IMG/VR virus record: IMGVR_UViG_3300036761_001135 | Coordinates: 64,001 to 128,000 of that record | DNA from: a virus | DNA length: 64,000 nucleotides | Strand: one strand, 5' to 3' | Part shown: positions 884 to 61,976 of the stretch, piece by piece | Numbering within the stretch: position 1 is the stretch's first letter | Layout: each line of letters opens with the position of its first letter | Notes under the pieces: model-generated | Told to the model about the DNA's origin: nothing | Seen by the model: the letters and a program-made list of their open reading frames with translations, nothing else | Database searches by the model: none | Position numbers and translations under genes: made by a program

Positions 884-2548
884 ATGGAACATACGCTTGT
901 AAAACGGGATGGACAGTCTGGAGGCGTGCGTCTGGTGGTTCTGGATCTGGAGCAGCCCGAGGTGGTGGAGCGACTTGCCAACGGGATTATGGTGGATCCT
1001 GGATGTGTCTATGTGTTCTCGGATGAGTGGGCAGATCGGCGGGTGGCATGTGAAGCGTTCGTGCGAGCGCGAGCGGGGCGGTTTGAGCGTCGCTTGGGTG
1101 CGCGTCAGTGTGTGGTGCGCGAGGTGGAGAAGATGGAGGCGCGTGTCTTCCTGGACGCATTTCATATCCAGGGGGCGAATCATCTTGCCCTTGTCGTGTT
1201 CGGCCTATTCGTTGAGGCGGAGTTGGTCGGGGTGTTGTCGCTGGGGCGGCACCATCGACAGGGCCAGGAGCGGCGGGTCGTGTTGGATCGGTTGTGCTTC
1301 CGAGATGGGGTACAGGTGATCGGTGGGTCATCGCGGATGCTGGATCGGGCTCGTGCCTGGGCGGAGGCGCATGGCTATGACGAGATTTTAAGCTTTAGTG
1401 ATAACCGCTTGACGCCGGGCGTGGTGTACGACCGCCTTGGGTTCACGGTAGATGCCAGTTGCCGTCCCGATTATTTCTATGTGCAAGATGGGCGGCGCAT
1501 ATCGAAGCAGAGCCAGCGGAAGCGGGCTAGCGGGTGCCCGGATGGGATGACGGAGCGATCCTGGGCACAGGCGCGTGGGTTGGTGCGTTGTTACGATGCG
1601 GGGAAGGTGAGGTGGTTACTTCCGTTGCGACCGTCATCGCATCCGACACAACAGCAGGACAATTCGGAGCAGGCTGCGCGGTCCAATGCGGCGGGCATTA
1701 GTGGAAGTGACATCCACATGCGAGGGTACTTTCATTCGAAAAAGCTTGGAGGCGATGTGTATTTTGGATCGTCTTACGAGTTGCGGTGTCTGTTTGAGTT
1801 GGATGGCGATCCAGACGTGCAAACCTTCCGACGTTGTGAGGCATTTCAGACGCCAAAGGGACGGTGGCGTGCTCCAGATTTGTGGATCGAGCGACGAGAT
1901 GGTCGCAAGGAGATTTGGGAGGTTAAGCCGTCTGTCATGGTGGATATGCCACGAGCGCGCTTACAGATTGCTGATACGGCGTTGTATGCGGTGAGCATTG
2001 GCGTTTGTTTTCGCGTGTGGACGGAACGGGACAGCGCGTTGGGAGAGGATGGCCGGATCATCGGATGGGCGCGTGAGTACCTGTCGCGTCAGCAGGGGGA
2101 TACTACTTACGAGGAGCGGAACCAGCGGACGCGAAAGGCGATTCGAGAGCGCCACTATGCGAAGGAGCAGGCTGCCTCGGTGGTGGTGCATTGTGATTAC
2201 TGCCAGGCCGATCACACGGTGCTGCCGCGCACTTACGCCCGGAACGTGGCCAAGCACGATGGGGCATATGTGTGCGAGGCCATGGCGGGGCATATTGGGG
2301 GAAGCAAGCCAAAGGACCACTTGAAGGTGACGAACCCATACGCGGAGGAAGGAAAGAAGAAATGTAGTATGTGTGAGCAGATACTTTCGATGGATAAATT
2401 TCAAAAACGGAAGGCATCATGGGATGGTCTTAGTGCGGCATGCAAGCCGTGCTTGCGTGCGTATGACGCGGTTAGGTATCAGAAGAGAACGCACGCGAAC
2501 CTGGGTTCGCCTGTAGAGGAGATCGCATGCGATTTGCATGGAGCATGA
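884..2548 (+). CDS. Free-standing chimeric homing-type endonuclease: Hef-like/GNAT-like N half, TnsA-like PD-(D/E)xK domain, C-terminal Zn finger
   Basis: 'GARQCVVREV..FLDAFHIQG..IGGSSRML..SFSDNR..VYDRLGF..PDYFY..YDAG' resembles phage Hef-type proteins; 'GYFHSKK..YFGSSYE..PDLWI..IWEVKP' resembles the TnsA N-terminal nuclease; CxxC pairs at the end. Confidence 0.7.
   Translation: MEHTLVKRDGQSGGVRLVVLDLEQPEVVERLANGIMVDPGCVYVFSDEWADRRVACEAFVRARAGRFERRLGARQCVVREVEKMEARVFLDAFHIQGANHLALVVFGLFVEAELVGVLSLGRHHRQGQERRVVLDRLCFRDGVQVIGGSSRMLDRARAWAEAHGYDEILSFSDNRLTPGVVYDRLGFTVDASCRPDYFYVQDGRRISKQSQRKRASGCPDGMTERSWAQARGLVRCYDAGKVRWLLPLRPSSHPTQQQDNSEQAARSNAAGISGSDIHMRGYFHSKKLGGDVYFGSSYELRCLFELDGDPDVQTFRRCEAFQTPKGRWRAPDLWIERRDGRKEIWEVKPSVMVDMPRARLQIADTALYAVSIGVCFRVWTERDSALGEDGRIIGWAREYLSRQQGDTTYEERNQRTRKAIRERHYAKEQAASVVVHCDYCQADHTVLPRTYARNVAKHDGAYVCEAMAGHIGGSKPKDHLKVTNPYAEEGKKKCSMCEQILSMDKFQKRKASWDGLSAACKPCLRAYDAVRYQKRTHANLGSPVEEIACDLHGA
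2493..2512. repeat. Palindromic repeat copy 1
   Basis: ACGCGAACCTGGGTTCGCCT, followed by SD-like GAGGAG and ATG 2527. Confidence 0.9.
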
Positions 2549-2799
2549 CTGAGGACGGGGCGCATACCGCTCCTTTGGGGGAATGGGCGGATGCTGGTCG
2601 AATTGAATTTCGTGTGTCCCATGATCCGAACGGCATGAAGTGGCGGATGGATGGGCATATTCACGGGCTGTCGTCGCGGCCGATCAAGATACTGCATGCG
2701 GTTCCTGACGATGGAATGATCTCGTTGGATTCGGTGTTGGAGGCATTCAAGTCGATGTGCGAGCGAGACGTTTTGATCCACGCGGCTTCTCCCTACTGA
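2527..2799 (+). CDS. Hypothetical protein
   Basis: 90-aa ORF with a GAGGAG SD. Confidence 0.55.
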   Translation: MRFAWSMTEDGAHTAPLGEWADAGRIEFRVSHDPNGMKWRMDGHIHGLSSRPIKILHAVPDDGMISLDSVLEAFKSMCERDVLIHAASPY

Positions 2800-2806
2800 C
2801 CGCCTC

Positions 2807-2891
2807 GAAAACGGAATAGTTATTGGATATTCGTCTGGCTATATTCAAAATCTCGGGGTCGAAAAAAACCGAGCGGATAGATATGCAGAAA
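2807..2891. repeat. Non-coding ~85-bp element, copy A
   Basis: Ungapped match to 27050-27134; the first 26 nt are identical and I count about 16 mismatches in 85. Confidence 0.9.
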
Positions 2892-2914
2892 TCCTTGGGT
2901 AGAATTCGATGTCT

Positions 2915-3478: not shown

Positions 3479-4143
3479 CAATGCATCACAAGAGACGCGT
3501 GGATGGGGCGGTTCAGGCGGGAAGTCTTGGGATTGGCGAGACGGTCGAAGTGCGCACGCGCATGGGCCAGATTGTGGCGCGTGGAGACGTGTGTGCTATG
3601 ACGCCTTTTGGAGTGACGATCCGAGAGGACGGCACGAGCCACAAGTTCTACATGGCCGAGTATTTCCTATTCTTCCCGGAAGAGCCTGTGCTGCCTGAAG
3701 TCGCTGCGAATATGATCGTGGATGCGCATCCTGACGCACGAGTTCGCGCTCGTCTGGGACGTATGTTCGAGCAGGGCGCGGAGAAGCCTACAAAGGGCGC
3801 TCAACAGATTGACGATGAAGAGGGCGATGACGAAGAGGAAGATGCCGAACCGGAGGAAACTGAGACACCGGCGCAGAAATCCATAGCAAACGACACGTCG
3901 TCTGTGGACGTAGAAAAGCTGCCTCCTGACATCAAGAAAGCTGTCCAAGTCGTTCAGAAGTTGGATGCCGATCAATTGAACTATATCCTAGCGCAGACGG
4001 GGCAGTCGTTGATGAGTGCGTTGCGGAGGAATGGTGTGAGCGAATCGGATCTGCACGGGTTAGTGCAGAAGGCGCAAAACGCTGTGTACCGCATCCTGAC
4101 GGGCAAGTCCTCTCGGGAGTGGAAGAAGGCGGCGGGAGAATAG
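3475..4143 (+). CDS. Hypothetical protein
   Basis: ATGA overlap with the upstream gene; 222 aa with an acidic linker. Confidence 0.75.
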   Translation: MTMHHKRRVDGAVQAGSLGIGETVEVRTRMGQIVARGDVCAMTPFGVTIREDGTSHKFYMAEYFLFFPEEPVLPEVAANMIVDAHPDARVRARLGRMFEQGAEKPTKGAQQIDDEEGDDEEEDAEPEETETPAQKSIANDTSSVDVEKLPPDIKKAVQVVQKLDADQLNYILAQTGQSLMSALRRNGVSESDLHGLVQKAQNAVYRILTGKSSREWKKAAGE

Positions 4144-4147
4144 CACC

Positions 4148-4876
4148 ATGCAAAACGTCCAGACTGATGCGGAGCTGCGAGTGTGGATCAAGCGTCGTTT
4201 GGGCGATGGCATAGTTTGCGTGGAACTCACTGACGAGCAGTTGGACGTCAACATTCAGATGTCCAAAGATTTCTGGCGCGCGTGGGTAGGCCAGGCGAAG
4301 ATGATCTACCTTCAGGCGACTGGGGTAAGCGAGTACGCCGAGTCGCTCATTGGACCAGATGTCGATAGCGTGGCAGAGGTCGTTTTCCCTGTGCATGACG
4401 ACTTGACGCGGATGTTTTCCTGGGCCGACGTCGAGGTGAATCCGTACACATGGGTTTACTCTGGATACGGTGGTTATGCGGCGCTTGTGCAGTTGATGCA
4501 GTACCGTGAGATGGGGAACCGCGTGATAAGCGCTGACCTGGACTGGGAGTGGGATCGAGCGCGTCGTGTTCTAATGCTGACCCCGCCACTGAACACGAAC
4601 TTGAACGGCCAACGGGTTGGCGTCGTTTACATTTCGACAGAAGTCGATATGACGAAGATGAGCAACTCGGAGTATTGGCTATTTCGTGAGTACGCGCTTG
4701 TGCAGTCGATGAAGACGTTGGGCATGATTCGCATGAAGTATTCGGACAAGCCGAGCGCCACCGGATCGTTTTCCATGGACGGCGACTCGTTGTACGCGAA
4801 CGCCGATGTGCGCGAGAAGGAACTGGAAGAGAAAATCCGTCAGTTGCAGTCGCCCGTCGGGTTTTGGACTGCGTAG
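4148..4876 (+). CDS. Neck protein, T4 gp13-like
   Basis: 'LRVWIKRRLG..VCVELTDEQLD' and 'WLFREYAL..LGMIRMKYS..MDGDSLY..A..ELEE' are gp13-family hallmarks; synteny after the capsid gene. Confidence 0.85.
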   Translation: MQNVQTDAELRVWIKRRLGDGIVCVELTDEQLDVNIQMSKDFWRAWVGQAKMIYLQATGVSEYAESLIGPDVDSVAEVVFPVHDDLTRMFSWADVEVNPYTWVYSGYGGYAALVQLMQYREMGNRVISADLDWEWDRARRVLMLTPPLNTNLNGQRVGVVYISTEVDMTKMSNSEYWLFREYALVQSMKTLGMIRMKYSDKPSATGSFSMDGDSLYANADVREKELEEKIRQLQSPVGFWTA

Positions 4877-4887
4877 AGGAGGTCCGC

Positions 4888-5829
4888 ATGATCAAGTACG
4901 TGGGACAATTGAACGATTCGTTGGCGGCCATGGCCGGTTGCATGTCGAGAGAAGAGCGGAAGATGCTTGGCATCGATCCCAGCACGAAACAGGACGATGT
5001 CTTGCGGCATGGAGCGGCCAAGTATATCGCGGAAGACGCCATTGCGGCATCGCAGCAGCTCGCACCGTTGTCTGCTTCCAGATCCGTGCCTCGCAAGGAT
5101 CTGCGGCCGTGGCAGGGCAAGGAGAGCGACGGCGAGATCATGTTCAACTTCGAGTCTGCCACGGACGCTCAAGACCTGTACGATTTCGTACTGGAGACCG
5201 GGCTACTCACGCCGGGCGAGGTGAAGCTCTACATGAGCGAGCACCAGACCAGCGTGCATTTCGCGCCGAGCGTATTGGTGCAGAAGCCCGAGATCATCCA
5301 GATGGCGTTGATTTCCTATCACGAGAAGGCCACTGAAGAGAGCATCGAGGCCATGGCAGATCTCGTGGAAGACGTGAACGCGATCATGGAGAAGAAGGCG
5401 AAGAGCGGTCGCGGAAGTGCGGAGCCCAAGACGAATCGAGTAGATTTCAATCCGTTCCATGACAAGGGTGGAAATTTCACGTCGCGTGAGGGCACCAAGA
5501 GTGGCGGGTCGTGGTCGGATGGAGCGCATGCCGGAAGTAAGAAATTGGCTGCGTCGAAGAAGGGCAAGAAGCTGCACTTCGTGGCTACCAAGTTGCCGTG
5601 CGGTCGGTCGGCTCGTGACGTGAGCAAAGACATCCGTTGTTGGGACGGTCGCACCGTGGGTGGCAAGCTTGCGTCGGTATCGAAAAAGTCATCGCGTGAC
5701 AGCAGTGATCGTTTGATGCCGGGCGTCAAGGAAGGGTTTACCCTCGCGGATCTGGACATCGTCAACGAGTGCCGGGCGATGTACGGCATCAAGACGCGTC
5801 TTTCCGAGGGATGGATGCGCGGAAGGTAG
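4888..5829 (+). CDS. Hypothetical virion/head-associated protein
   Basis: GAGGAGG SD before ATG 4888; contains 'NPFHDKGGNFTS', resembling the NP(Y/F)HD..G.F motif of phage head-associated proteins. Confidence 0.65.
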   Translation: MIKYVGQLNDSLAAMAGCMSREERKMLGIDPSTKQDDVLRHGAAKYIAEDAIAASQQLAPLSASRSVPRKDLRPWQGKESDGEIMFNFESATDAQDLYDFVLETGLLTPGEVKLYMSEHQTSVHFAPSVLVQKPEIIQMALISYHEKATEESIEAMADLVEDVNAIMEKKAKSGRGSAEPKTNRVDFNPFHDKGGNFTSREGTKSGGSWSDGAHAGSKKLAASKKGKKLHFVATKLPCGRSARDVSKDIRCWDGRTVGGKLASVSKKSSRDSSDRLMPGVKEGFTLADLDIVNECRAMYGIKTRLSEGWMRGR

Positions 5830-7850: not shown

Positions 7851-7870
7851 AGGCGAACCCAGGTTCGCGT
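7851..7870. repeat. Palindromic repeat copy 2 (inverted orientation)
   Basis: AGGCGAACCCAGGTTCGCGT, the exact reverse complement of copy 1. Confidence 0.9.
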
Positions 7871-7881: not shown

Positions 7882-8568
7882 GTGACGATTATTGGCACCG
7901 TTAGTTTGCGCGATTGGGATGCTGGAATCCCGTTGACGCTGGAAGCCGAGATCGCCACCTATCCTGTGGACGGGGAAGACAGACCAATTCATGTGATACG
8001 AATTCCTGGGGTGGATTCGGAGCTGGCCCACCTGGACGGGCGCGTGCCGGTTTTGTTTCACACACCAGAGGACGCCTACCAGGACTTCTTGCTGCCCTGC
8101 ATTACCGTCAAGCGCAACGACATGACCCCCGCGTTCGACAGGCACCCCTGGTACACCTGGGTGGCGCGTGGTCCTGCCAAAGGGGCGAAGGTGGTCGTGT
8201 TGCCGGACGGTAGGCGCGGATACGACCGCTATGAGAACCAATGGAGGGCCACCCAATTCGATATCACATATGACGTGCAGGTGATGGCGCGGCGGCAGGC
8301 GGAGTCGAACCCCATGCTGCAATATGTGTTGCGCCATTTTTTGCCGCCGTCGTTCATTTTCAAGGTTGTTGACAGTATAGGGGATGTGCGGGAATATGAC
8401 GCTGTAGATGTTAGTGTTTCGGAAACGTCGGAGCTGGCCGACATTGGTGACAGGACGGTGGGATGGACCATCTCTTTCACAGTGCGCGCGGAAATCGACC
8501 TCCACGACCCTGTGGAGGCACCTGCCGTTCAATCTGTGGATGTGACTTACGCGAGATACCGTCCGTGA
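7882..8568 (+). CDS. Tail terminator/sheath stabiliser, gp15-like
   Basis: 'LPCITVKR..FD' and 'FDITYDVQVMARR' pattern; lies before the sheath gene. Confidence 0.6.
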   Translation: MTIIGTVSLRDWDAGIPLTLEAEIATYPVDGEDRPIHVIRIPGVDSELAHLDGRVPVLFHTPEDAYQDFLLPCITVKRNDMTPAFDRHPWYTWVARGPAKGAKVVVLPDGRRGYDRYENQWRATQFDITYDVQVMARRQAESNPMLQYVLRHFLPPSFIFKVVDSIGDVREYDAVDVSVSETSELADIGDRTVGWTISFTVRAEIDLHDPVEAPAVQSVDVTYARYRP

Positions 8569-9061: not shown

Positions 9062-12000
9062 ATGGAATTCACCTATCCGGGCGTCTATATCAAAGAGATT
9101 CCGAGCGGTCCGGGGCCGATCACTGGCGTTACGACGTCCAACATGGGGCTCATTGGGTTTACCACCCGAGGGCCTGTCGATCAGCCTGTCCTGGTAACAA
9201 GCTTCCAGGAGTTCACAACGAAGTTTGGCACTTTCACGGAGAAGGGTCTTGCGCCGACCATGGCGTATGCCTTCTTCCAGAACAGTGGCCAGCGCATGTA
9301 CATGGTGCGCGTATGCCATGACGACGCTGCGAAGTCCCTGTGGGATTACGAGATCGATCAGACCGGCGAGATTCTTGGAATCACGGCGGTCCCGAGCGGA
9401 CTGTACGATCTCCAACTCGACCACATGCCTGTCAAGGAGACCGTCCCTGGCAGCGTGACGATCACCTTCCCGAACGCGTCGGTCCCTGGAAACACCAACG
9501 TGTTTCGGGATGACGGAGCCGGATCTTTCGTTTCGGTTGGCGCGGGATCTGGTGGCTCTGGGTCCATCGACTACGTGACCGGCGAGGTGTCGATCCAGTT
9601 GGCGGTTCCCGGTGAGTTCACCGGAGCGCCGAACTCGATCACGGCGGCTTACACGTATCGCGTCTTGCGCTTCGAGATGAAGTGGCCGGGCGTGGTCGGC
9701 GACAACTTCCGCGTGCAACTCCAGAACGGCAGCGACGACTACATGGTCTCCGCACAGGCCAGGTGGACGCGGCATACCGCAGTTGTGCAGGAAGACCTAA
9801 ACGGCGATCCGCTGAATCGATCCTGGTCCACGTTGGAGACATTCGCGGACGTGGTGCTCGACGATCCGACCAGCAAGAACTACATCGTGCTCGTCATGAA
9901 CGATGCGATCAACGGGTCGCAGTACGTTCGCGTCACGGACTACGGCAATCAGATCAATCCGCCGGAGCTGGCAGGCGATGCCATCACGGGCGAGGATCTC
10001 TCGTCGATGCAGCAGCACAGCGATGGATCTGGCACCGTGCCGGCCGCTTACGACGGTGTTTGGAAGGGCTGGAAGTACATCCTCGCCAACGAGGTATCTC
10101 CGACCACGTTGAAGGCGGAGTTCCAATTCGTCGAGGGCAATCCGTCGAGCCCTGGAGGCCCGCTGGCGCTGTCCATCGGAATTGGCGCGAGCCCGGCTTC
10201 GGCGGTTCCGATCCTCACCTGGCAGCAGGCGGCGGTGGATGCGAACAGCGTCCAAATCACCTGCACGCTGACGGGAGCGGGAGCCACCACGTTGACCGAC
10301 GACGGTGCTTCGCACATCATGTCCGGCGCGACCCAGGTCGGCACGGTGAACTACACGACCGGAGCCATCGTTCTCGACATCACGCCCATGGCGGACACCT
10401 TCGTGGCGAACAGCCCGCTGCTTCTGGATTGCGTCTATGCGCAGCCTGTGACGGTGGGAGACGACGGACAGGGCAATGCGTACATCGTCGATCCGGCGTT
10501 GCTGACCCCGCCGCTCGTTGGCGTCCCCGGGAAGTTCCAACTCAACGCCTCTGGCACGAACACCATCGACTATGACTCGGGCGAGCTGACTCTCACCTGG
10601 AAGATTTCCGGGAATCCCGGTGCTGGTCCTTGCGGCGTGGCGACCTCGCCCACGGCAGCGGCCAAGGTCGGCGCAGTTGGCCCCTACAACCTGAACACGG
10701 GCAACTCCTTCTCGGTCAAGGTGAACGGTGCTGGCGCGGTGGCGGTGGCCTTCACGGGCACGAAGGCGACTCGGGTTGGCGGTGCGGTGTTCCCGATTGT
10801 CGCCACGACGGGCGGCGAGAACTGCACCATCGTGATCGACGGAAACTCCTACGTAGTCACGGCGGGCGCGGGACTCACGCTGGCCCTGGAGATCGCCAAC
10901 CTAATCAACGGCGTGATCTCCGGCGGTAGCGCGGTGGAGACCGGCGGCGGCACGGGCGTGGATATCAAGTCCGACAGCGCGGGCACGGGATCGTCGGTGC
11001 AGATCATCGCGGGGTCTCCGAACCTGGCGACGCTCATCGGGCATACGGCGGGCACCACGGCTGGCACGGGCAACGTGGCCAACATCGACGCGGTGTTGAA
11101 CACAGAGGTGAAGGCGGCGGTGGAGCTGGCGACCACGGCGGACGTGACGGCCAACATCGACGGGTCGTTCACGATCACGTCTCCGACCACAGGCGTTCTT
11201 TCCGAGCTGGACTTCACGGTGGGCCTGACGGCGTTGGGCATCACGGTAGAGACCATCAACGGAACGGACGGCTTTGGTGGCGGCCAGACGGCGGACTACT
11301 ACACCGTTCCACAGAGCAGCATCTTGGGCCTGCTTGATGGCGGATCGGACGGCAGCGCCACGGATTCGGACGACATCGTGAGCCCGCTACTCGCGGCGGA
11401 CATGCGAGCCCTGTACAGCTTTGGCCAGGTGGATGAGTTGATGCAGCTTGTGGCTGCGGATTTCCAGACGGATACCTACGTCATCGACACCTTGCTCACC
11501 TACGCCGAGTTGATGAAGGACAAGTTCGTCATCGGGTCGGTGCCATTTGGCATGGAGTACCAGACGGCTGTGACCTGGAAGCGGTTCACCTTGAATCGCT
11601 ACTCCAGCTTTGGAGCGATCTACTACCCCCACGTCAAGATCCGCGACCCGCTCACGGGCACCAACGTAGACGTGCCACCGGGCGGCCACGTTGCGGGCGT
11701 CTATGCTCGCACCGATGCGGCGAAGAACGTGGGCAAGGCTCCGGCGGGCATCGAGGACGGGGCGCTGGCATGGGCCACGGGCCTGGAGTACACGTTGACT
11801 CCTGCGCAGGTGGGCGTGTTGAACGAGAACAAGATCAACTGCCTTGTGCAGTGGCCGCAGACGGGACGTGTGGTTTGGGGCGCGCGGTCACTGGATGCTT
11901 CCGGCGGTGAGTGGCCGTACCTCCAGATGCGGCGCTTGTTCATGTTCGTGGAGAAGAGCGTCTTCAAATCGACACACGTTCATGTCTTCAAGAACAACGG

Positions 12001-12235
12001 GCCACAACTTTGGAACGACATCAGTACGCAGTTGGTGACGTTCTTGGCTGGCCTCCAGCAGGGCGGCTACTTCGCGGGGAATACCCCGGAGGAATCGTTC
12101 TTTGTGGTGTGCAATCGCACCAACAACCCGCAGAACACGGTCGATCAGGGCATCGTGTACTGCGACGTTGGCATCGCAGCGAACAAGCCGGCGGAATTCT
12201 TGGTCTTCAGGTTCTCACAAAAAAGTTTGAAGTAA
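9062..12235 (+). CDS. gp18: Contractile tail sheath protein with a large central insertion
   Basis: N-terminal 'YPGVYIKEIPSG..ITGVTTS..GFTTRGP'; C-terminal 'VPPGGHVAGVYARTD..KAPAG..WGARSL..YLQMRRLF..VGIAANKPAEFLVFRF'. Confidence 0.97.
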   Translation: MEFTYPGVYIKEIPSGPGPITGVTTSNMGLIGFTTRGPVDQPVLVTSFQEFTTKFGTFTEKGLAPTMAYAFFQNSGQRMYMVRVCHDDAAKSLWDYEIDQTGEILGITAVPSGLYDLQLDHMPVKETVPGSVTITFPNASVPGNTNVFRDDGAGSFVSVGAGSGGSGSIDYVTGEVSIQLAVPGEFTGAPNSITAAYTYRVLRFEMKWPGVVGDNFRVQLQNGSDDYMVSAQARWTRHTAVVQEDLNGDPLNRSWSTLETFADVVLDDPTSKNYIVLVMNDAINGSQYVRVTDYGNQINPPELAGDAITGEDLSSMQQHSDGSGTVPAAYDGVWKGWKYILANEVSPTTLKAEFQFVEGNPSSPGGPLALSIGIGASPASAVPILTWQQAAVDANSVQITCTLTGAGATTLTDDGASHIMSGATQVGTVNYTTGAIVLDITPMADTFVANSPLLLDCVYAQPVTVGDDGQGNAYIVDPALLTPPLVGVPGKFQLNASGTNTIDYDSGELTLTWKISGNPGAGPCGVATSPTAAAKVGAVGPYNLNTGNSFSVKVNGAGAVAVAFTGTKATRVGGAVFPIVATTGGENCTIVIDGNSYVVTAGAGLTLALEIANLINGVISGGSAVETGGGTGVDIKSDSAGTGSSVQIIAGSPNLATLIGHTAGTTAGTGNVANIDAVLNTEVKAAVELATTADVTANIDGSFTITSPTTGVLSELDFTVGLTALGITVETINGTDGFGGGQTADYYTVPQSSILGLLDGGSDGSATDSDDIVSPLLAADMRALYSFGQVDELMQLVAADFQTDTYVIDTLLTYAELMKDKFVIGSVPFGMEYQTAVTWKRFTLNRYSSFGAIYYPHVKIRDPLTGTNVDVPPGGHVAGVYARTDAAKNVGKAPAGIEDGALAWATGLEYTLTPAQVGVLNENKINCLVQWPQTGRVVWGARSLDASGGEWPYLQMRRLFMFVEKSVFKSTHVHVFKNNGPQLWNDISTQLVTFLAGLQQGGYFAGNTPEESFFVVCNRTNNPQNTVDQGIVYCDVGIAANKPAEFLVFRFSQKSLK

Positions 12236-15466: not shown

Positions 15467-16243
15467 ATGACGACCATGAACGATCTGTTTGAGAGCATGG
15501 AGACTGCCCAGGATGAGGCGGAGTTCTTCGATGCGATCCTTGAGGCCGACGACGATCTCCTGGACGAGGTGTTCGACGAGGAAGACGTGGAGCGCCTGGA
15601 GATCTTTGCCCAGCTCATTGGTGCGGCAGAGGCCGGGGCGCTATCCGAAGACCAGGACGACATGTTGGAGGGTTTTCGGAGTTGGATGGCCAAGAAGAAG
15701 ACGCAGATTGCGGGCAAGCTGCCGCCGGGCGCGAAGATGGTGTTCGGCAAGATCGTGAAGGGCGGCAAGGTGGTGGGGGGAGCGGCCAAGAAGGCCGTGG
15801 CGGGGGCGCAGAAGGCGGTCCAGAAGGGTGTGGCGGCCAAGCGGGCGGTGCAGGGCGCGGCGTATCGGTTCACGGACGCGGGCAAGAAGGCCCATGCGGC
15901 GGCGAAGAAGGTGGCGGACACCAAGGGGCGCAAGGCGGGGGACGCGGCGTGGAAGGCTTCCAGGGAAACCTACAAGAAGCACATCAAGGGTGGCGAGAGC
16001 CATACCTATGCCACGGCGCAGGCGCAGAAGGCTGCGTCCCGATTCGGCGGGGAAAAGTCGAAGGCGAAGGCCAAGCCGACCGCTCCTGTGGAGGTCGAAA
16101 AACCCAAGCCGAAGGCTGGGAAGGGCACTCGGAAGAAGACGTCGGTTGCTCCACCCCCTGCGGCAGAGGCACCAGTGAAGAAGACGCGGAAGCGCAAGCC
16201 GAAGATGGAAGACGTGTTTGCCTATGTGCAGGCCGAAGCATAG
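15467..16243 (+). CDS. Acidic N-terminus plus Lys/Ala-rich histone-H1-like protein; leader array member
   Basis: MTTMNDLFES start; ~65 acidic residues, then a strongly basic K/A-rich region. Confidence 0.75.
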   Translation: MTTMNDLFESMETAQDEAEFFDAILEADDDLLDEVFDEEDVERLEIFAQLIGAAEAGALSEDQDDMLEGFRSWMAKKKTQIAGKLPPGAKMVFGKIVKGGKVVGGAAKKAVAGAQKAVQKGVAAKRAVQGAAYRFTDAGKKAHAAAKKVADTKGRKAGDAAWKASRETYKKHIKGGESHTYATAQAQKAASRFGGEKSKAKAKPTAPVEVEKPKPKAGKGTRKKTSVAPPPAAEAPVKKTRKRKPKMEDVFAYVQAEA

Positions 16244-16263
16244 ACGCGAACCTGGGTTCGCCT
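16244..16263. repeat. Palindromic repeat copy 3
   Basis: ACGCGAACCTGGGTTCGCCT directly after TAG and directly before GGAGG. Confidence 0.9.
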
Positions 16264-16273: not shown

Positions 16274-16588
16274 ATGACGACGATGCGGACACTGATCGGG
16301 CGGTTGGAAGAGGGTTCGGATCTGACCGAGCGTGCGGAGATCTTGATCAAGGGCGATATGCAGGCGGTCAAGAAGAGCATCATAGATGCCGTCATGGACA
16401 AGATTGCCATGTCTGGCGTGTATCTCGTGGTGGAAATCAGCCACGACGGCAAGCGGTTTAAGGTGTCTGGAACGGTTAGCGGGGTGGCGGATTTTATTGC
16501 TAGATCCAAGCCTCCGGTTGAGGATGTCAAGATCGTGGAGATCTCGACGGATCGCAACTGGACGCGGAGCAAAGCCGAAGAGGTGTGA
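16274..16588 (+). CDS. Hypothetical protein; leader array member
   Basis: MTTMRTLIGRLEEG start. Confidence 0.75.
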   Translation: MTTMRTLIGRLEEGSDLTERAEILIKGDMQAVKKSIIDAVMDKIAMSGVYLVVEISHDGKRFKVSGTVSGVADFIARSKPPVEDVKIVEISTDRNWTRSKAEEV

Positions 16589-17200: not shown

Positions 17201-17220
17201 ACACGAACCTGGGTTCGCCT
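17201..17220. repeat. Palindromic repeat copy 4
   Basis: ACACGAACCTGGGTTCGCCT, followed by GAAGGAG. Confidence 0.9.
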
Positions 17221-17233: not shown

Positions 17234-17854
17234 ATGGGAAATCTAGGACGGCTAGGCATTCGATTGATGAACGAGTCCTACGGGATCTTTTCGAATGCAA
17301 AAGTGGTGCGCCAGGGGCAGATTCTTCCGACGGAGAATACGTTTAATGGGTACTACGGCGCTCTGGACCATGTGTTGGGGGATATGAAGGCTGCGACCCG
17401 CGTTTGGAACGAGACGTTTTCGATTCTCATATCGGCATATCCAGATGTCGATTCTCAATCCATCAGGGATTTCCTTGATGGAGATGGTGGCCGTCGCTTG
17501 GGAGATGTCGTGATCGACGGATTCATTGACAACATGGGTGCCGCCTATGATTCGCTGGATGAGCATCCGGTCATCGCTCCCGAAGCTGCACGCATGAAGA
17601 GAATGCTATCGGCAGAGATCGCCAGACAGAAGTGGATTTCGAAGGAACTGGAACAATCTCCAATGAGTTCCACAAATGGTTCTTTGAAGAGCGTGGAGTC
17701 AGTGTTGGATCGGGCGAACTACGTTTGGGATGTGGTTAGGTCAGAGGAACAGAAGAAAAACTGGAAAGAGCGAGACAAGGCCATGCACGATCTTCAGAAG
17801 ACGGCAGATGTGCTGTCCACTGTTTCTCGGGCCTGGATGGCACAGAGGAGGTAG
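17234..17854 (+). CDS. Hypothetical protein, paralog of 16592-17185
   Basis: Shared RQGQILPTE, IR.(F/Y)LD...G..GD and KKNWK.RD.A.H.LQK.AD motifs. Confidence 0.8.
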   Translation: MGNLGRLGIRLMNESYGIFSNAKVVRQGQILPTENTFNGYYGALDHVLGDMKAATRVWNETFSILISAYPDVDSQSIRDFLDGDGGRRLGDVVIDGFIDNMGAAYDSLDEHPVIAPEAARMKRMLSAEIARQKWISKELEQSPMSSTNGSLKSVESVLDRANYVWDVVRSEEQKKNWKERDKAMHDLQKTADVLSTVSRAWMAQRR

Positions 17855-21383: not shown

Positions 21384-21988
21384 GGCACTTGATCGAGCGA
21401 ATGGAACGGATCATGGAGGCCCGTGGCACGGAGGTGCTCGTGAAGGAGCTGCCGGACGTGCTGCGCAAGGCGTTGAAGGACGTTGGCTACCGGAGCCGGG
21501 ACATCGCCGTGGTGCCGCAGGCGCTGGTCAGCCTGAACCCCTACGCGGGGGACGGGGAGCGGGGCTTCGCGGTATTGGTGAACTTGTCCACGGGCGCGAC
21601 CAAGACGGTGCAGGGCGACTGGGGCGGGTACAGCCCGGTTGGGAAGCCCTCCATCGACCAGGATCGGGGCGAGCATCCGCTGCCAAGGGACGGCGTGGCC
21701 ATCGTGGGGTCGAGTGGCGGGCGGGGCACCTACGCGACGATTTACGTGCATCCAGACAGCGTGGTGCCGTTGCTGCCGGGGGACGTGGAGATGACGGACC
21801 GCGAGGCGGGCATCCTGCGGAGCATGGCGATGACGTCGAGCTATCGCAAGGAGCTGTTCGCGGACATGAAGGTGCAGACGAGCGAGGTAGACGCGCTGAT
21901 CGAGCGTGGCTGGATTGCACGGAACAAGGCCGGGGCGTTGAGTCTGACAACGGCGGGCAAGAACGCGGCGGCGTCTGCTCACAAGTGA
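21380..21988 (+). CDS. Hypothetical protein; leader array member
   Basis: MRHLIERMERIMEA start; the C-terminus may be a winged helix. Confidence 0.75.
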   Translation: MRHLIERMERIMEARGTEVLVKELPDVLRKALKDVGYRSRDIAVVPQALVSLNPYAGDGERGFAVLVNLSTGATKTVQGDWGGYSPVGKPSIDQDRGEHPLPRDGVAIVGSSGGRGTYATIYVHPDSVVPLLPGDVEMTDREAGILRSMAMTSSYRKELFADMKVQTSEVDALIERGWIARNKAGALSLTTAGKNAAASAHK

Positions 21989-22000
21989 AAGAGGTAAGAG

Positions 22001-22336
22001 ATGGCACGGAGCATGAAGAGTCTAATCGAGGGAATGCAGAAGATAATGGAGGCCCAGCTTCCCGGAGGGGATCATGGCCGACCAAGAAGAATTGTGAAGA
22101 TGGCAGCGGAACAGATGCAAAGCAGTGAAGGAAAAGATTGGTTACTGCGCGACGAAAGAGGAACATGGGAGAAAGAAGCTACTCGACTTATAGATCAAGT
22201 GAAGGAAAAGGCAGAACAGCACGGGTTGAGTGATTCCGATGTTGATGAGCAGATTGCAACATATTTGTCTATAATGGTTTTGCAGACTCTTATTAATGAT
22301 GCAAAGAAGGGATCAAGGAAAAGAGCAAAGAAGTGA
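22001..22336 (+). CDS. Hypothetical protein; leader array member
   Basis: MARSMKSLIEGMQKIMEA start; AT-rich body. Confidence 0.75.
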   Translation: MARSMKSLIEGMQKIMEAQLPGGDHGRPRRIVKMAAEQMQSSEGKDWLLRDERGTWEKEATRLIDQVKEKAEQHGLSDSDVDEQIATYLSIMVLQTLINDAKKGSRKRAKK

Positions 22337-22398
22337 ACTTTGGAATATGTCATGAAATTGGACAAGAACGCGGCTTCGGCTGCGCACGGACGGTGAGG

Positions 22399-23757
22399 AT
22401 GGACAGCATGGGTTCACTGATCTTGTTGGTGGAGCATCGCATGCTCACGGAAGAGACAATGGCCGTGACCCCGGCGTTGATTGCCAAGCTGCGTAAAGAC
22501 TTCCTCGTGCTCATGGGCAATGTGTCCAGGGTGGACACGGCAGAGAAGCTGACGACCTTCAGGTTGGGCGTGAAGACATTCAGCGATCTGCTAGAGCGCA
22601 TCATGATCACGGCCAACGAGTATCTGGTAGATGTGGCGCAGTTAGCAGAGTTGAAGTTTGACAATGCGTTGGCGTCGGATGCCCGTTACTTGGCGGACCA
22701 CATGAGCGATGCGTGGAAGCTGCACGAAGAGCTGATCGTGCCTGGACCGAGTTTGGAGTCCCTTGTTCGTGATGCTGCTGGGAATAGCTATCATCTTGGC
22801 ATGGTGAATGAGCGATACCTATCTCGCTTTACGAGTAAGGCGAAGAAGTGGGACAGCGCAGTACGGCGGGTGGCGCCCAAGGCATGGAAGTGGCTTGAGA
22901 GCGCGGCTACGACTGTTGCTAAGGGCGCGGCATATGGTGGACGAGGGGCGCTAAAGATTGATCGCGGCATTGGGACATTGCGTGAAATGGCTGGGTTCAA
23001 GGTGCGGTTGGACGGGTTCGTGGGGAGTGATTTCGAGGTAGAGGGAGTGCAGAAGTTCGAGCGTGGGTTGCAGTTATTCCGCCAGTTGGCGAGCGCTCGA
23101 TTTCCTGCGCTGCTGCGGAACACCACGCCGTTTGTGTTGGTTTTCTCTGGCGATCCTTCCGGTGGAAAAAATGCAGCGGGTTGGACTGCGCAAGCCATTT
23201 TCGTTTCCTCCGCTGGAATGCATAAGGACGCTAAGGGGATCGCACATTTGATGGCCCACGAGCTAGGGCACGGGATCTATCAAAACTACCTGAGTGGTGA
23301 GGCGCAGAACGCTTGGTTCTCGTTCATTAGAGGAAACACGGATCCGATAGATTTGCGGCAAGTTCTCAAGGACATTGGCGATGACGGGTGGATTCATGAG
23401 CCGAACGTCTACAAGTCCGACCCGATTCGGTGGTTGCAGGTTCGCGGGCTAGGTCAGGATAAGCGTTATCGGTTTGAGCGCGGCGAGGACATCCGTCGTT
23501 GGATCGAGGGTGGTGGCGACCCGGTGGTCCAGGTGACACGTCATCAGGTCACGGCCTATGCGAATACGAATCCCGAGGAGGCGTTTTGTGAGGCGCTGGG
23601 GATGCTTGTGGCCTATGGTCCGAAGACGGTGCTCCCAGAGGTGCGCCAGATGCTGGGCCTTTTACTGCCGCAGCTCAAGACCGAGAGCGTTGAGTTGGGC
23701 GCGTTATTGGTGCGGCTAGAATCGGTGGGCAACGCGGCAGTCGCTCACGGACAATGA
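22399..23757 (+). CDS. Zincin-like metallopeptidase domain protein; leader array member
   Basis: HExxH motif 'AHELGH' and a downstream 'YANTNPEEAFCEA'; likely start MDSMGSLI at 22399. Confidence 0.75.
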   Translation: MDSMGSLILLVEHRMLTEETMAVTPALIAKLRKDFLVLMGNVSRVDTAEKLTTFRLGVKTFSDLLERIMITANEYLVDVAQLAELKFDNALASDARYLADHMSDAWKLHEELIVPGPSLESLVRDAAGNSYHLGMVNERYLSRFTSKAKKWDSAVRRVAPKAWKWLESAATTVAKGAAYGGRGALKIDRGIGTLREMAGFKVRLDGFVGSDFEVEGVQKFERGLQLFRQLASARFPALLRNTTPFVLVFSGDPSGGKNAAGWTAQAIFVSSAGMHKDAKGIAHLMAHELGHGIYQNYLSGEAQNAWFSFIRGNTDPIDLRQVLKDIGDDGWIHEPNVYKSDPIRWLQVRGLGQDKRYRFERGEDIRRWIEGGGDPVVQVTRHQVTAYANTNPEEAFCEALGMLVAYGPKTVLPEVRQMLGLLLPQLKTESVELGALLVRLESVGNAAVAHGQ

Positions 23758-23805
23758 TCATGGATGGCGAAGCGGCGAATATTCAGCCGTAGAAAGGTGG
23801 ACTCG

Positions 23806-24213
23806 ATGGGACGGAACATGCGGAATCTGATCGATGATATGCAGTCGCTTTTGGAGCGGAGCGGCGTGAGTGCGTCTGTGCAGGTTGGCGAGCGGTACAT
23901 GACCTACACGAAGGAAGGCGACCGCCTTGTCTTCACGACATGGTCGTGGGTTTCCCCGTATTACGGGAAGGTTCCTGCGAAGGATGCGATCTATATCCAT
24001 ACAGAGGGTCGCACGCCAGACGATCTGGACACGCTGATTGATCGGCAGAAGAGTGTTTACGGTTCCAAGCCTGGGCTGAAGAGTTACGAGGGAAAAGAGG
24101 AAGAGTACCCGTACACGACGGGGCGCTACACGGGACCGGACATAGAAGACATCAAGCGCTTGAAGGGCACGACCGTGCGTTTGAGCGACGGGAAGCCCGA
24201 GCCAATCGCATAG
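23806..24213 (+). CDS. Hypothetical protein; leader array member
   Basis: MGRNMRNLIDDMQSLLE start after AAGGTGG. Confidence 0.7.
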   Translation: MGRNMRNLIDDMQSLLERSGVSASVQVGERYMTYTKEGDRLVFTTWSWVSPYYGKVPAKDAIYIHTEGRTPDDLDTLIDRQKSVYGSKPGLKSYEGKEEEYPYTTGRYTGPDIEDIKRLKGTTVRLSDGKPEPIA

Positions 24214-27138: not shown

Positions 27139-27158
27139 GGACGAACCCAGGTTCGTGT
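27139..27158. repeat. Palindromic repeat copy 5
   Basis: GGACGAACCCAGGTTCGTGT, abutting the stop of the minus-strand gene 27158-27451. Confidence 0.85.
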
Positions 27159-27451
27159 CAGGCGTCGTCTTCCTCGTCACCGGATTCCTTTCGCGTTAGC
27201 AGGATCGCCGGCCCGGCGATGTAGTCGCCTTCTCGCAGGTAGGGGGCGACGTAGGCGGTGGCCAGCAGGTTGGGTGGCAATCCGTGCAGCTTGCCTTCCT
27301 CGTTGATGCAGAGGATGAGTCCCTCTTGATCCAGCGTGACGAATTCGATGTAGCCGCCCACCAATGATTGCATCTCGTCCAGGTCGAACGAGGCACCTTT
27401 GTTGGGGGTGATCCATGTGGCTTCGCCGGTCACGGGGATGAGTCGTGCCAT
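27158..27451 (-). CDS. DUF3846-like protein
   Basis: 'LDEMQSLVGGYIEFV..INEEGKL.GLPPNLLAT..IAGPAIL'. Confidence 0.8.
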   Translation of the reverse strand: MARLIPVTGEATWITPNKGASFDLDEMQSLVGGYIEFVTLDQEGLILCINEEGKLHGLPPNLLATAYVAPYLREGDYIAGPAILLTRKESGDEEDDA

Positions 27452-29452: not shown

Positions 29453-29472
29453 ACGCGAACCCGGGTTCGCGT
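29453..29472. repeat. Palindromic repeat copy 6 (perfect 20-bp palindrome)
   Basis: ACGCGAACCCGGGTTCGCGT between TAG and the GGAGG of the tape measure gene. Confidence 0.9.
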
Positions 29473-36465: not shown

Positions 36466-36485
36466 ACGCGAACCTGGGTTCGCCT
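36466..36485. repeat. Palindromic repeat copy 7
   Basis: ACGCGAACCTGGGTTCGCCT just after TGA. Confidence 0.9.
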
Positions 36486-43187: not shown

Positions 43188-44744
43188 ATGGCGCAGGCGA
43201 GTAATACAGGACATTTTCAGTGGCCGATTCCGAATTGGAACGCCGACTGGCAGAAGTGGCAGCAGATGTTCGGGACGTTTGCCCACGGGGTGGACGCCTG
43301 CGTCTTTGGCATCCTAGAGCACATCACAGTGCTCGCCAAGACGCTCCCGAGCGCGGTGATCATCGACCCGGGGACGCATGTGTTTTCGCAGAACGCGGCG
43401 GCGGTCTTCGTCTCGCGGACGCTTCAGACACAGATCTACGTGGGGCCGACCCCGTTGACGTTGATTCCGGGGGCGCTGGTGTGCGCGTCTCTTCAGCCGG
43501 GAGCGGTTGGTCCACAGGTTGTGGATTGGGAGTTGCGGGATGGAAGCACTCCGGTCGATCCGGCATTGGTCGTGTTTGGAGTGGTGGCGGACGACTATGC
43601 GATCCGCTGGTACAACGGGGCGCGGTTGCCGCTGGGCACGGCTATGGTGTTGTTCGAATTTCCAGGCGGGAGTGGGCCGGGCGGTGGATTAGATCCAGCG
43701 CCGTTCCTGACGCTTTCGGCGAACACGGTGCTGACCGAATCTCAAAACGGGCAGTATTTCGAGACGAATAATGTTGGGGGCACGGTAACAGTGACGCTGC
43801 CGACCGACCCGACGGACGGCATGCAGTACACGGTGGTTGCTGGGAAGGGCACTACGACCGTCGTGGAGGCAGGTGGGACGAACGGCATACTCTGGCCGCA
43901 GTCCACGGTGAGCGTGCCCCTGGTGCCTGATTTGCGGGCGGCTCCGACGACGTTGGCACCTGTTCGATTGACGATCACGGCGAAGGATCTCACGGCGTTT
44001 GGGATCTCGGAGATCGCGTGGATAGCGACGTCGGCGACGGGGTTGTGGACAGACGCGGTGAGTGGCAAGGCGTTTGACTTCAATTTCCCGGTGACGGTGA
44101 GTAGCGGGTTGCTCATCGACGATCCTTTGGTTGGGACCAAGTCGGTGGCGGGTGCGCCTGCGTTGGTAAGTGACGCAGCGGCGGTGACACCGTTCCGGCT
44201 GAAGTGCGAGTCGGACACCCATTTGCGCAGCGTGGACATGACGGTGACGCGAACCCAGGTTCGTGCCTTACTGGAGAGCTACCACGGGTCGGCCTCGGTG
44301 GTCCCGGTTGCGTTTACGGTGAACACCACGGTGTTTGCAGCGGTGGCAGACGACGGGTGGGTGGCCACGTTCAAGGTCGGAGCGAACACGTCGGGTGCAG
44401 CGGTTCCAATCGTTGTGCAGAACGAGGGCGTGGTGACCGAGATTTCCATTGGAGACGCGCCATTTGTCCACAGCATTACCTGCTCGCAGCTTGGGGCGAG
44501 TATCATCCTGCGGCACACGGGAAATCCGCTGGGGTCGCGTGGCCGGTTCCAAGTCATAGCGGGGTCTGGCACATGGACGGACAATCTTGGTGGCGTGCAT
44601 GTTTTCGATAGTTTGGGCGCGCTGGACGGGGCTGCGAATCCCAATGGGATCGTGACCGGGGTTCTTGGGCAGTCGTACTATCAGACAGGGGTGGGCGTAT
44701 TTTGGATCAATATAGACGGCAGCACGGAATGGATCGTACAGTAG
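43188..44744 (+). CDS. Tail fibre/baseplate-associated protein, paralog of 39145-40899
   Basis: Colinear similarity through 'GRF.V..G.GTWTD..GGVH'. Confidence 0.7.
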   Translation: MAQASNTGHFQWPIPNWNADWQKWQQMFGTFAHGVDACVFGILEHITVLAKTLPSAVIIDPGTHVFSQNAAAVFVSRTLQTQIYVGPTPLTLIPGALVCASLQPGAVGPQVVDWELRDGSTPVDPALVVFGVVADDYAIRWYNGARLPLGTAMVLFEFPGGSGPGGGLDPAPFLTLSANTVLTESQNGQYFETNNVGGTVTVTLPTDPTDGMQYTVVAGKGTTTVVEAGGTNGILWPQSTVSVPLVPDLRAAPTTLAPVRLTITAKDLTAFGISEIAWIATSATGLWTDAVSGKAFDFNFPVTVSSGLLIDDPLVGTKSVAGAPALVSDAAAVTPFRLKCESDTHLRSVDMTVTRTQVRALLESYHGSASVVPVAFTVNTTVFAAVADDGWVATFKVGANTSGAAVPIVVQNEGVVTEISIGDAPFVHSITCSQLGASIILRHTGNPLGSRGRFQVIAGSGTWTDNLGGVHVFDSLGALDGAANPNGIVTGVLGQSYYQTGVGVFWINIDGSTEWIVQ

Positions 44745-50154: not shown

Positions 50155-50174
50155 ACGCGAACCCAGGTTCGCCT
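50155..50174. repeat. Palindromic repeat copy 8
   Basis: ACGCGAACCCAGGTTCGCCT between TGA and GAGGAG. Confidence 0.9.
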
Positions 50175-58625: not shown

Positions 58626-58645
58626 AGGCGAACCCGGGTTCGCGT
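58626..58645. repeat. Palindromic repeat copy 9
   Basis: AGGCGAACCCGGGTTCGCGT directly after TAG. Confidence 0.9.
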
Positions 58646-58656
58646 GCAGGTGCAGA

Positions 58657-61077: not shown

Positions 61078-61092
61078 ATAGAGGAGGTTGGC

Positions 61093-61923
61093 ATGGCGTT
61101 CGGGTTCATCGGCAAGCTCACTGAAGCAATCATGAACGGGCCGGAGGGCGCGGACAGCGCGAGCATGTCGATCTTGGGGATCGATTCGACTGACCCAAAG
61201 GGCAGCACGGTGATTTTGCCGGAGCGGACGTTTCAGTTCTGGCCGGAGAGCATCCAAGACAGCATCGAGATCGGGTGGCAGTTCAAGGACATTCCGGGCG
61301 GCTCGCATGCTCTGGCGCAATGGGGAAGTAACAACGGTCGCACGATCAGCTTTGAGGTACGGTTGCACCGTTTCATGAAGCCGGTGGACGACCGCACCAT
61401 CTTTGAGAAGATTATGGACCCGATTGGGCTGACGACGCCTGGCCAGCAGTATCTGAAGGACATGCGTCCGCACAACGTGGATATCGAATCTGAAATCCGC
61501 TACCTGAGAGCGTTCTGCTACCCGAGCTACGCTGTGGACAATGTGTCCGGTAGCACGGTTTCGTATTCACCTCCGGTGGCTATGCTGTGCGTGCCTGGAG
61601 TTGGTCTGAACGAGTTGGGAAGCCACACCATCATGGCCGTGATGACGGGCTGTGATGTTACCTACAATCTGTTGTTTCCAAATGGGAAGCCGCGCAACGC
61701 TACGGTAGCGCTCACGTTCAAGCAGATCGTCCAGAAGGCTGATGTTGGCGTGATGTGGAGGGGGATTGGCAAGGACGCGGCCATCAATGGGTACAAGCAC
61801 CGCATTCCAGACATCGGCTACAATGTAAATGCCTACACGGCGGGCAATGCCAAGAGTGCCAAGGAGCCCTGGACGGGCGCTGGAGGCGTGCTCAACAAGA
61901 TTGACACGAAGGGGACGACCTGA
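61093..61923 (+). CDS. Tube initiator / CIS-tube-like baseplate protein
   Basis: 'FQFWPESI..W...IPG.SH..QW....RTISF..LRAFCYP..PP..VMTGCDVTY..F..G.PR.ATV.LTF'. Confidence 0.75.
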   Translation: MAFGFIGKLTEAIMNGPEGADSASMSILGIDSTDPKGSTVILPERTFQFWPESIQDSIEIGWQFKDIPGGSHALAQWGSNNGRTISFEVRLHRFMKPVDDRTIFEKIMDPIGLTTPGQQYLKDMRPHNVDIESEIRYLRAFCYPSYAVDNVSGSTVSYSPPVAMLCVPGVGLNELGSHTIMAVMTGCDVTYNLLFPNGKPRNATVALTFKQIVQKADVGVMWRGIGKDAAINGYKHRIPDIGYNVNAYTAGNAKSAKEPWTGAGGVLNKIDTKGTT

Positions 61924-61956
61924 TGGGCATCAAGGCACAGCCGACGCAGTCTACCC

Positions 61957-61976
61957 ACGCGAACTCGGGTTCGTCT
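61957..61976. repeat. Palindromic repeat copy 10 (degenerate)
   Basis: ACGCGAACTCGGGTTCGTCT immediately before ATG 61977. Confidence 0.75.

Follow-up and report, generated by a model that had tools for sequence, protein, structure and literature searches.

The DNA analysed here is a 64,000-nucleotide window (bases 64001-128000) of the 168,688-bp IMG/VR virus record IMGVR_UViG_3300036761_001135, a phage genome estimated to be 91% complete, and the element in question is a 20-bp palindrome that is scattered over it, mostly at gene junctions. Our comparison suggests that the palindromes are probably double-stranded DNA sites for a dimeric, most likely phage-encoded protein, predicted to have co-evolved with some 30-40 such sites; the element itself is real, selected and ancient within the phage clade. 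An initial annotation of the window had offered, among other readings, an operator for a dimeric regulator, and the dimeric part of this proposal is favoured by the central symmetry, the symmetric changes of the centre, the independence of the half-sites and the retuning of codons around the motif, whereas the classical operator is not, since most copies lie away from promoters. Below, positions refer to the window unless they are marked as genome positions; G000 denotes the record under study, G001-G005 are its close relatives, and A (this phage) to E are the lineages compared. Gene boundaries throughout are taken from crude gene calls by codon usage.

A motif search of the window recovered all ten copies of the initial annotation. 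The 14-bp core, CGAACCYRGGTTCG, has 11 exact matches there, the additional one at 44250 inside the open reading frame (ORF) 43188-44744, while shuffled sequences predict by chance 0.00 matches to the 20-mer and 0.86 matches to the 14-mer with at most two mismatches. The whole record contains 30 exact cores (0 for a reversed-pattern control) and 33 copies once transitions at positions 9-12 are allowed. The conserved unit spans 20-22 bp, S-A-S-G-CGAAC-C-Y-R-G-GTTCG-Y-S-T-S, and no conservation was seen past positions 0 and 21 except for the ribosome-binding site. As described earlier, the core variants (C>T, G>A) are all transitions, the C/G differences at positions 2 and 19 falling outside the core, and U-tracts are absent, with a T-tract behind 0 copies in the genome. 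A scan of IMG/VR for contigs with many copies of the motif led to G001-G005 (36-133 kb), which are syntenic with this genome at 93, 83, 77, 74 and 76% DNA identity and carry the motif at the same density. Over 26 site comparisons with G002-G005, identity was 95% in the arms, 82% at the four centre bases and 76% at the three outer bases, as against 72% in the 30-bp flanks. Copies inside ORFs are also conserved (e.g. genome 58691, 108250 and 51306), and those at genome 58691 and 108250, the latter being the window copy at 44247, are in the same reading frame and both encode T-R-T-Q-V-R-A.

More distant lineages were reached by alignment searches with the major capsid protein and with a 1291-amino-acid (aa) protein, which is called tape-measure-like from its length and position only. 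Lineage A has the version GCGAAC-CYRG-GTTCGC. Lineage B (G006, of 161 kb, G007 and L419; capsid identity ~75%) has GCG(A/C)AC-ACGT-GT(T/G)CGC, with 41 copies in G006; lineage C (L418 and G008, the latter with a GC content of 40% and 57% capsid identity) has ANRCGAAC-TYRA-GTTCGYNT, with 23 copies in 74.8 kb; and lineage D (G009 and others, capsid identity ~46%) has GCGCAA-YYRR-TTGCGC, with 10 copies in 42 kb. From A to B to C the centre changes from CYRG to ACGT to TYRA, such that the outer pair is exchanged symmetrically (C..G, A..T, T..A) around an inner step that is Y-R in every case, and in lineage D the arms themselves differ (GCGCAA...TTGCGC). Of the 17 sites that could be mapped to G006, 10 are matched by a lineage-B site in the same junction or the same codons, two of the ten inside ORFs, and the window contributes the copies at 7851, 17201, 29453, 36466, 58626 and 61957 to this shared set. 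At genome 58691 (G006 7579), R-T-Q-V-R has become R-T-R-V-R, with the codons altered so that the DNA spells the lineage-B motif. Because all copies switch together in each lineage, a trans-acting reader is implied; and since the motif drifts along the phage phylogeny, lineage D arms included, this reader is likelier to be phage-encoded than a host factor. That the sites stay fixed in place while the motif drifts with the phylogeny further suggests that the reader co-evolved with its ~30-40 sites. In addition, a symmetric centre with a fixed Y-R step is the pattern to be expected of a dimer that reads two half-sites across a deformable centre, and a tetraloop would need none of it. The clade thus amounts to a clean natural experiment, with four lineage versions at orthologous positions and one lineage with independent half-sites, which separates a protein site from a hairpin without laboratory work.

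The hairpin alternative holds that the copies act as RNA structures on plus-strand transcripts and adjust structural-protein ratios, whether as terminators lacking a U-tract, as stabilisers of 3' ends or as processing sites. The copies do separate a stop codon from the next ribosome-binding site where neighbouring genes run the same way, a 6-bp stem closed by a 4-nt loop is possible for every copy in this genome (mean -9.1 kcal/mol), G.U-compatible variants exceed A.C variants by 26 to 4, and two sites show G-C versus A-T between orthologues. One of these paired changes had been pointed out in the copy at 27139, and it stands, with A and T at positions 3/18 where the orthologues of two relatives (G003 and G005) have G and C; this copy has 3 mismatches to the 20-mer consensus, and its 14-bp core (27142-27155) is exact. 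Canonical terminators, as well as canonical promoters, occur in the window at chance level. We nevertheless consider an RNA function unlikely. In the arm variants of G006, left A or C combines with right T or G at random (AT 11, CG 9, AG 11, CT 10; Fisher P = 1). This independence means that half of the copies carry a mid-stem mismatch and that there is no selection for base pairing, and the mismatched copies reach a folding energy of only -3 to -5.5 kcal/mol; the RNA processing or stabilising hairpin of the initial annotation is disfavoured on these grounds. Moreover, the bases that would form the loop do not vary within a lineage and change in a symmetric way between lineages, neither of which a hairpin needs; positions 2/19 are mismatched in most copies of this genome, yet A1 and T20 beyond them are conserved, and a G-C pair at 2/19 is found in 0 of the 33 copies here and once (in G002) in the 90 copies of six lineage-A genomes. 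A at position 3 co-occurs with T at position 18 no more than by chance (3/7 versus 32% overall), the copies inside ORFs are conserved, and Rfam holds no family that matches the palindrome.

A true terminator with nearly the same sequence does exist in bacteria, and it counts for the hairpin. With a G-C pair at 2/19 and with A and T tracts on both sides, the 20-mer (AAAA-AGGCGAACCYRGGTTCGCCT-TTTT) is an ordinary bidirectional terminator in many proteobacteria, often beside tRNA genes (loci L106-L321); among the matches listed, most are in Burkholderiales, with many Comamonadaceae, and some in scattered Gammaproteobacteria. The features that make the bacterial 20-mer a terminator are exactly those missing from the phage copies. 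In the bacterial genome collection the 20-mer appears once per genome among the matches listed, and it is not a host repeat family there. A phage-encoded REP-like element, which had also been suggested, therefore fails, given these single scattered matches and the absence of a RAYT/Y1 gene, and an abundant host repeat, which would have undone the earlier interpretation, was likewise not seen among the matches listed.

With respect to position, 24 of the 33 copies are in non-coding DNA, which makes up only 11.8% of the genome (P 7e-16). The gene-junction placement reported earlier holds: eight window copies (7851, 16244, 17201, 27139, 29453, 36466, 50155 and 58626) are intergenic, 0-15 nt past a stop codon and 9-22 nt ahead of the next start, and the remaining two of the original ten precede a start. 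The copies in the window are the following.

2493..2512: palindrome ACGCGAACCTGGGTTCGCCT in the last codons of ORF 884-2548 (a Mom-like/HNH fusion), with the start at 2527 lying 14 nt on; kept in G001 and G002, while G003 homology ends within the copy.
7851..7870: palindrome, intergenic, with a stop 7 nt before and the GTG at 7882 11 nt after; kept in G001 and G003, and the orthologous junction in G006 has a lineage-B site at 44373.
16244..16263: palindrome abutting the stop TAG 16241-16243, followed by GGAGG and the ATG at 16274; one core change in the G001 orthologue.
17201..17220: palindrome with A at position 3, intergenic, with the ATG at 17234 13 nt on; G001 and G003 homology breaks just ahead, and a lineage-B site lies at the orthologous junction (G006 52547).
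27139..27158: palindrome with A-T at positions 3/18 in a minus-strand gene island, abutting the stop of the minus-strand gene 27158-27451.
29453..29472: perfect 20-bp palindrome with a stop 1 nt before, followed by GGAGG and the ATG at 29482 of the 1291-aa tape-measure-like gene; G006 and G007 hold their own lineage's version at this junction.
36466..36485: palindrome with a stop 1 nt before and the ATG at 36508 22 nt after; the orthologous lineage-B site is G006 66386.
44247..44266: eleventh copy, absent from the initial annotation, in frame inside the 518-aa ORF 43188-44744; kept in G001 and G005 despite diverged flanks.
50155..50174: palindrome with a stop 2 nt before and the ATG at 50189 of a 1574-aa gene 14 nt after.
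58626..58645: palindrome abutting a TAG stop, with the ATG at 58657 11 nt after; G001 homology begins exactly at its first base, and the orthologous lineage-B site is G006 75173.
61957..61976: palindrome with T at position 9, with the ATG at 61977 directly after it, or within ORF 61923-62168 if the latter's start is taken; perfect core in G001, and the orthologous lineage-B site is G006 81119.

In every lineage the copies are fitted closely between stop codon and ribosome-binding site, and we read this mainly as a reflection of genome compaction: the copies are placed at junctions because only there do 20 fixed bases cost nothing. No bias was found for the TAG stop codon as a part of the motif. 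A first count had hinted that isolated half-sites are depleted; after masking of the palindromes, 17 were observed versus 22.7 expected, and avoidance was discarded.

The copies are also evenly spaced, at a mean distance of 5.0 kb with a coefficient of variation of 0.55 versus 0.96 for random placement (P ~3e-4), and the largest gap is 11.2 kb versus ~20 kb expected. This holds as well against a null model restricted to intergenic gaps, and it is seen also in G001 and more weakly in G006. Together with the intergenic bias, such spacing speaks against random placement over the genome, which had been named as a refuting outcome. A second repeat, (G)TTGACAAAC followed ~17 nt on by TAnnnT, looks like a phage early promoter family; its strict form (TTGACRAM...TAnnnT) occurs 11 times here (e.g. 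G000 156171, 159172 and 161232) and 24 times in G006, and the window holds only weaker versions, e.g. at 848. A copy lies within -60 to +80 of a strict early promoter in 3 of 11 cases here, and 8 of the 24 in G006 have a copy nearby; the apparent excess is gone once palindromes and promoters are both restricted to intergenic gaps. One copy overlaps the promoter -10/+1 region in both lineages (genome 161261 and G006 112814), others are 4-26 bp upstream of a -35 element, and a few early-region copies (e.g. genome 5685, 156153 and 159143) show the layout of stem-loop, early promoter, ribosome-binding site and start.

For a protein that could read these sites, we compared ~59 of the 236 ORFs with Pfam or PHROGs. 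Among these, only one recognisable domain for sequence-specific DNA binding emerged, a putative MerR-type winged helix in a 197-aa protein (genome 8333-8926, plus strand), which is encoded between a helicase gene and recA and combines an N-terminal charged helical region with a MerR/RacA-like winged helix. Its match to Pfam MerR_1 (E 4e-4, 20.9 bits) is just below the curated cut-off of 21.6, and a PDB profile search matched MerR 4ua1 (E 0.0018). The AlphaFold2 model has a mean pLDDT of 77.6, and all Foldseek matches listed are MerR-family DNA-binding domains (including RacA-DNA, BldC and TnrA) with E values of only 0.01-0.2, RacA-DNA 5i44 giving a TM of 0.62-0.66 on the target. MerR-family proteins bind contiguous palindromes of 18-22 bp and distort the central step, and the B. 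subtilis chromosome carries ~25 scattered GC-rich palindromes of 14 bp that RacA binds. The phage protein has homologues in lineages A-E. Where the arms are shared, in lineages A, B and C, its putative recognition helix reads (I/L/V)N(Y/H)WT(R/T)IG; lineages D and E have IAKW(H/E)(Q/R)(R/L)G there. From its predicted fold and sequence, this protein may be regarded as a weak candidate for the reader, a lead to be followed. No ParB-family domain (PF02195 or PF17762) was found in the phage.

Several observations weigh against the protein-site interpretation and its candidate reader. The candidate owes its status to being the sole such domain in the screened part of the gene set; a homologue is present in lineage E (capsid identity 36%), where no dispersed palindrome was found; and L419, which has the lineage-B centre, carries the lineage-A form of the helix, which breaks the co-variation of helix and motif centre that we had considered. 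The correlation of helix and motif that is left fits, but it may reflect phylogeny, with which it is confounded. In addition, the majority of copies lack a nearby promoter and the majority of promoters lack a copy, and two of the ~41 lineage-B copies are followed by T-tracts, like true terminators. Finally, RNA pairing on the coding strand would produce just such an excess of G.T over A.C variants as positions 3/18 show; part of it is explained by a 1.9-fold bias of coding-strand C>T over G>A. A comparison of G000 with G001, polarised by G002-G005, shows this asymmetry between the strands (C>T 0.0103 per C, G>A 0.0055 per G), which fits the strong positive GC skew; the raw counts of G>T and C>A, 313 versus 251, are un-normalised for 59,445 G and 39,773 C. 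In lineage E, a CCGGA-N3-TCCGG "palindrome" proved to be spurious, being produced by a Gly-Ser coding repeat; long Gly-Ser-rich, collagen-like coding repeats lie at ~73-74 kb and 95-99 kb in G011 (L426-L434; capsid identity 36%).

A different reader, supplied by the host, has also to be considered. The core CGAAC-N4-GTTCG, with its 30 exact matches in the genome and 11 in the window, equals letter for letter the LexA operator (the Cheo or SOS box) of Firmicutes and Actinobacteria, and the 14-bp consensus and its geometry are identical in lineages A, B and C (PMC9578287 Table 1; PMC3323433). The phage might accordingly carry 30-40 host LexA boxes, either coupling its expression or the accessibility of its genome to the host SOS response or soaking up LexA. 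The arms remain CGAAC/GTTCG in these three lineages despite GC contents from 40% to 66%, the tail sheath finds its best matches in Bacillus and Streptomyces phages, a RecA homologue is among the phage's proteins, and the lineage-B centre ACGT fits RNRY, the preference in B. subtilis. Still, we judge this explanation unlikely. The phage has neither a LexA DNA-binding domain (PF01726) nor an S24 peptidase domain (PF00717), and no host could be assigned: isolated phages gave no DNA-level match and only distant protein matches, a RecA scan of the genome collection gave no match, and the protein atlas returned viruses only. The centre and three flanking bases are conserved in each lineage far beyond the needs of a LexA box, half of the lineage-B half-sites are CGCAC, and lineage D has the same dispersed layout with arms (GCGCAA...TTGCGC) that form no LexA box. 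Furthermore, most of the ~33 copies are off promoters, and a copy at 3 of 11 strict promoters is what a shared intergenic location predicts; no tyrosine integrase was found in the phage, serine recombinases not having been searched for. A more specific version, in which a virulent-looking phage lays out 30-40 evenly spaced LexA operators and would either stay silent until the host is damaged or, with its own RecA helping, titrate LexA and set off the SOS response without damage, seems to us somewhat less likely still.

Even less can be said for sites of a DNA-transaction enzyme, such as a type II topoisomerase or gyrase that cuts with a 4-bp stagger at N4, or a nicking, homing or modification enzyme, and we regard this as very improbable. 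Dyad-symmetric sites centred on 4 bp, with a Y-R step that is flexible, would suit such an enzyme, as would regular spacing on a genome that is transcribed almost wholly one way. The REP/BIME repeats of E. coli are gyrase sites, and two DNA methyltransferases are encoded by the phage. However, the methyltransferases have no link to the palindrome, no topoisomerase turned up among the ~59 screened ORFs, no search having been aimed at one, and 20 conserved bp represent far more specificity than such enzymes normally show.

The initial annotation had also raised the possibility of a recombination site for gene exchange, and as a secondary effect this survives, whereas as the main role it is improbable, most sites being stable in position. 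The comparison with G001 gives 102 homology-block ends, of which 6 are no more than 12 bp from a copy; a uniform model predicts 0.9, and a model limited to intergenic ends 2.5. Two copies at genome 138544 and 139364 flank an 820-bp unit consisting of palindrome, ribosome-binding site and gene, in place of which G001 has one copy with precise junctions, an arrangement that parallels Corndog gene 14 (PMC4351075) and gene exchange through PeSLs (PMC4122927); this cassette (G000 138534-139396 versus G001 76910-77030) encodes a ~243-aa protein with an MRxL...-type leader. Some copies lie directly ahead of early sigma-70-like promoters, like T4-type PeSLs (PMC4122927). That the copies serve primarily in recombination or mobility, either bounding cassettes in the manner of PeSLs or being a REP/MITE-like repeat that a transposase has dispersed, is nonetheless quite improbable. 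Only 6% of breakpoints are on copies, a modest excess over intergenic gaps; most sites have kept their orthologous positions through deep divergence; no Y1/RAYT (HUH) transposase domain (PF01797) was found in the phage; regular spacing and the copies inside ORFs are left unexplained; and the promoter part, by which a PeSL is defined, is absent from most window copies. T4-type PeSLs are composite, loosely conserved and lineage-specific stem-loops upstream of an early sigma-70-like promoter, a layout that a few copies match, and they are found at indel or replacement junctions in hyperplastic regions and rarely in structural modules (PMC2839356, PMC4122927). The element described here is, in contrast, a near-invariant 20-mer that is mostly promoterless, runs throughout the structural genes, has a minority of the breakpoints on its copies and is under no selection for pairing.

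We thus return to sites read by a dimeric protein, for which the following model may be proposed. A sequence-specific homodimer would read each site as a pair of inverted half-sites (GCGAAC and one or two bases of the centre), the sites lying at ~5-kb intervals over the whole genome and mostly in the only stretches left free, those that separate a stop codon from the next ribosome-binding site. The bound protein may act genome-wide by punctuating or silencing transcription, similar to L5 stoperators and KorB sites, or alternatively it may organise the DNA, similar to RacA ram and Noc sites. As a by-product, identical 20-bp copies would offer short homologies for the gain, loss and swapping of gene cassettes. 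Many near-identical palindromes, independent half-sites and a sequence that switches with the lineage, as expected of dispersed dyad sites, were all found, and protein binding is predicted. RacA ram and Noc NBS in B. subtilis comprise tens of scattered GC-rich palindromes of 13-16 bp, which are read by dimers acting at a distance, and RacA has a MerR-like winged helix, as does the candidate phage protein in its structure match. Similarly, the OB sites of RK2 KorB are tens of GC-rich 13-16-bp palindromes over the replicon whose dimers act at a distance (PMC11790492). The sequences of all these sites differ from that of the phage palindrome, and the ParB/Noc/KorB systems encode a ParB-family protein, of which none was found in the phage.

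Among phages, the closest likeness is to the repeats of Cluster O mycobacteriophages (Corndog; TGTTCGG-N3-CCGAACA, 17 bp). There, more than 30 near-invariant copies are likewise spread genome-wide, between genes, near gene starts and in ORFs, with no meaningful orientation, and a gene (Corndog gene 14) is flanked by two copies in one phage where relatives have one copy (PMC4351075). Those repeats are of a 7-3-7 type with a free centre in a Mycobacterium siphovirus, whereas the present unit is a contiguous 20 bp with a constrained centre; neither lineage-specific versions nor half-site independence, both seen here, are known to be reported for the Cluster O repeats. Cluster A stoperators, which are read by L5 gp71 and are proposed to act on transcription elongation genome-wide, also number more than 20 and lie in short intergenic spaces near stops and starts (PMC9283540, PMC6550527). 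They are, in contrast, asymmetric 13-bp sites, read by a monomer in one orientation to transcription and serving the immunity of temperate phages, while the present sites are palindromic and belong to a phage in which no tyrosine integrase was found. Dispersed near-invariant palindromes are known in a few phage groups (Cluster O and the T4-type PeSLs), and they are not known to have been assigned a function. A reader, if found, would show how a large phage marks its whole chromosome at ~5-kb intervals, possibly for silencing, insulation, DNA organisation or the sensing of host stress, and since the copies mark points of cassette exchange, they help to read mosaicism in uncultured phages.

As for the phage itself, its genome has a GC content of 58.8%, 229 of the 236 ORFs called are on the plus strand, and 0 tRNA genes were found in it. 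Genes for a tail sheath, a baseplate wedge, a T4-type portal and a prohead protease identify a myovirus, the replication module of which is unlike that of T4, with DnaB, a DnaC/IstB-like loader, RecA and an SNF2 helicase. The RecA is of the bacterial type (Pfam E 2e-41) and is encoded, together with DnaB and the loader, at G000 9509-10756, 4201-5529 and 3533-4189, respectively; an 876-aa ORF at G000 21487-24117 has no Pfam match. In the window, the tail sheath (9062-12235, plus strand) is unusually long at 1057 aa, and its likeness to sheaths is confined to the C-terminal ~270 residues, with Bacillus phage BCD7 and Streptomyces phages as the best matches. The 554-aa ORF at 884-2548 (plus strand), which carries a palindrome copy in its last codons, has a Mom-like DNA-modification domain at residues 77-253 fused to an HNH/endonuclease-VII-like region at the C-terminus, and its PHROG matches are homing or HNH endonucleases. 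The sole minus-strand gene cluster of this otherwise plus-strand genome (26468-28099) has a palindrome copy between its genes and two good sigma-70-like promoters on the minus strand, TTGACA-16-TAAATT at 28169-28142 and TTGACA-17-TAGATT at 27011-26983.

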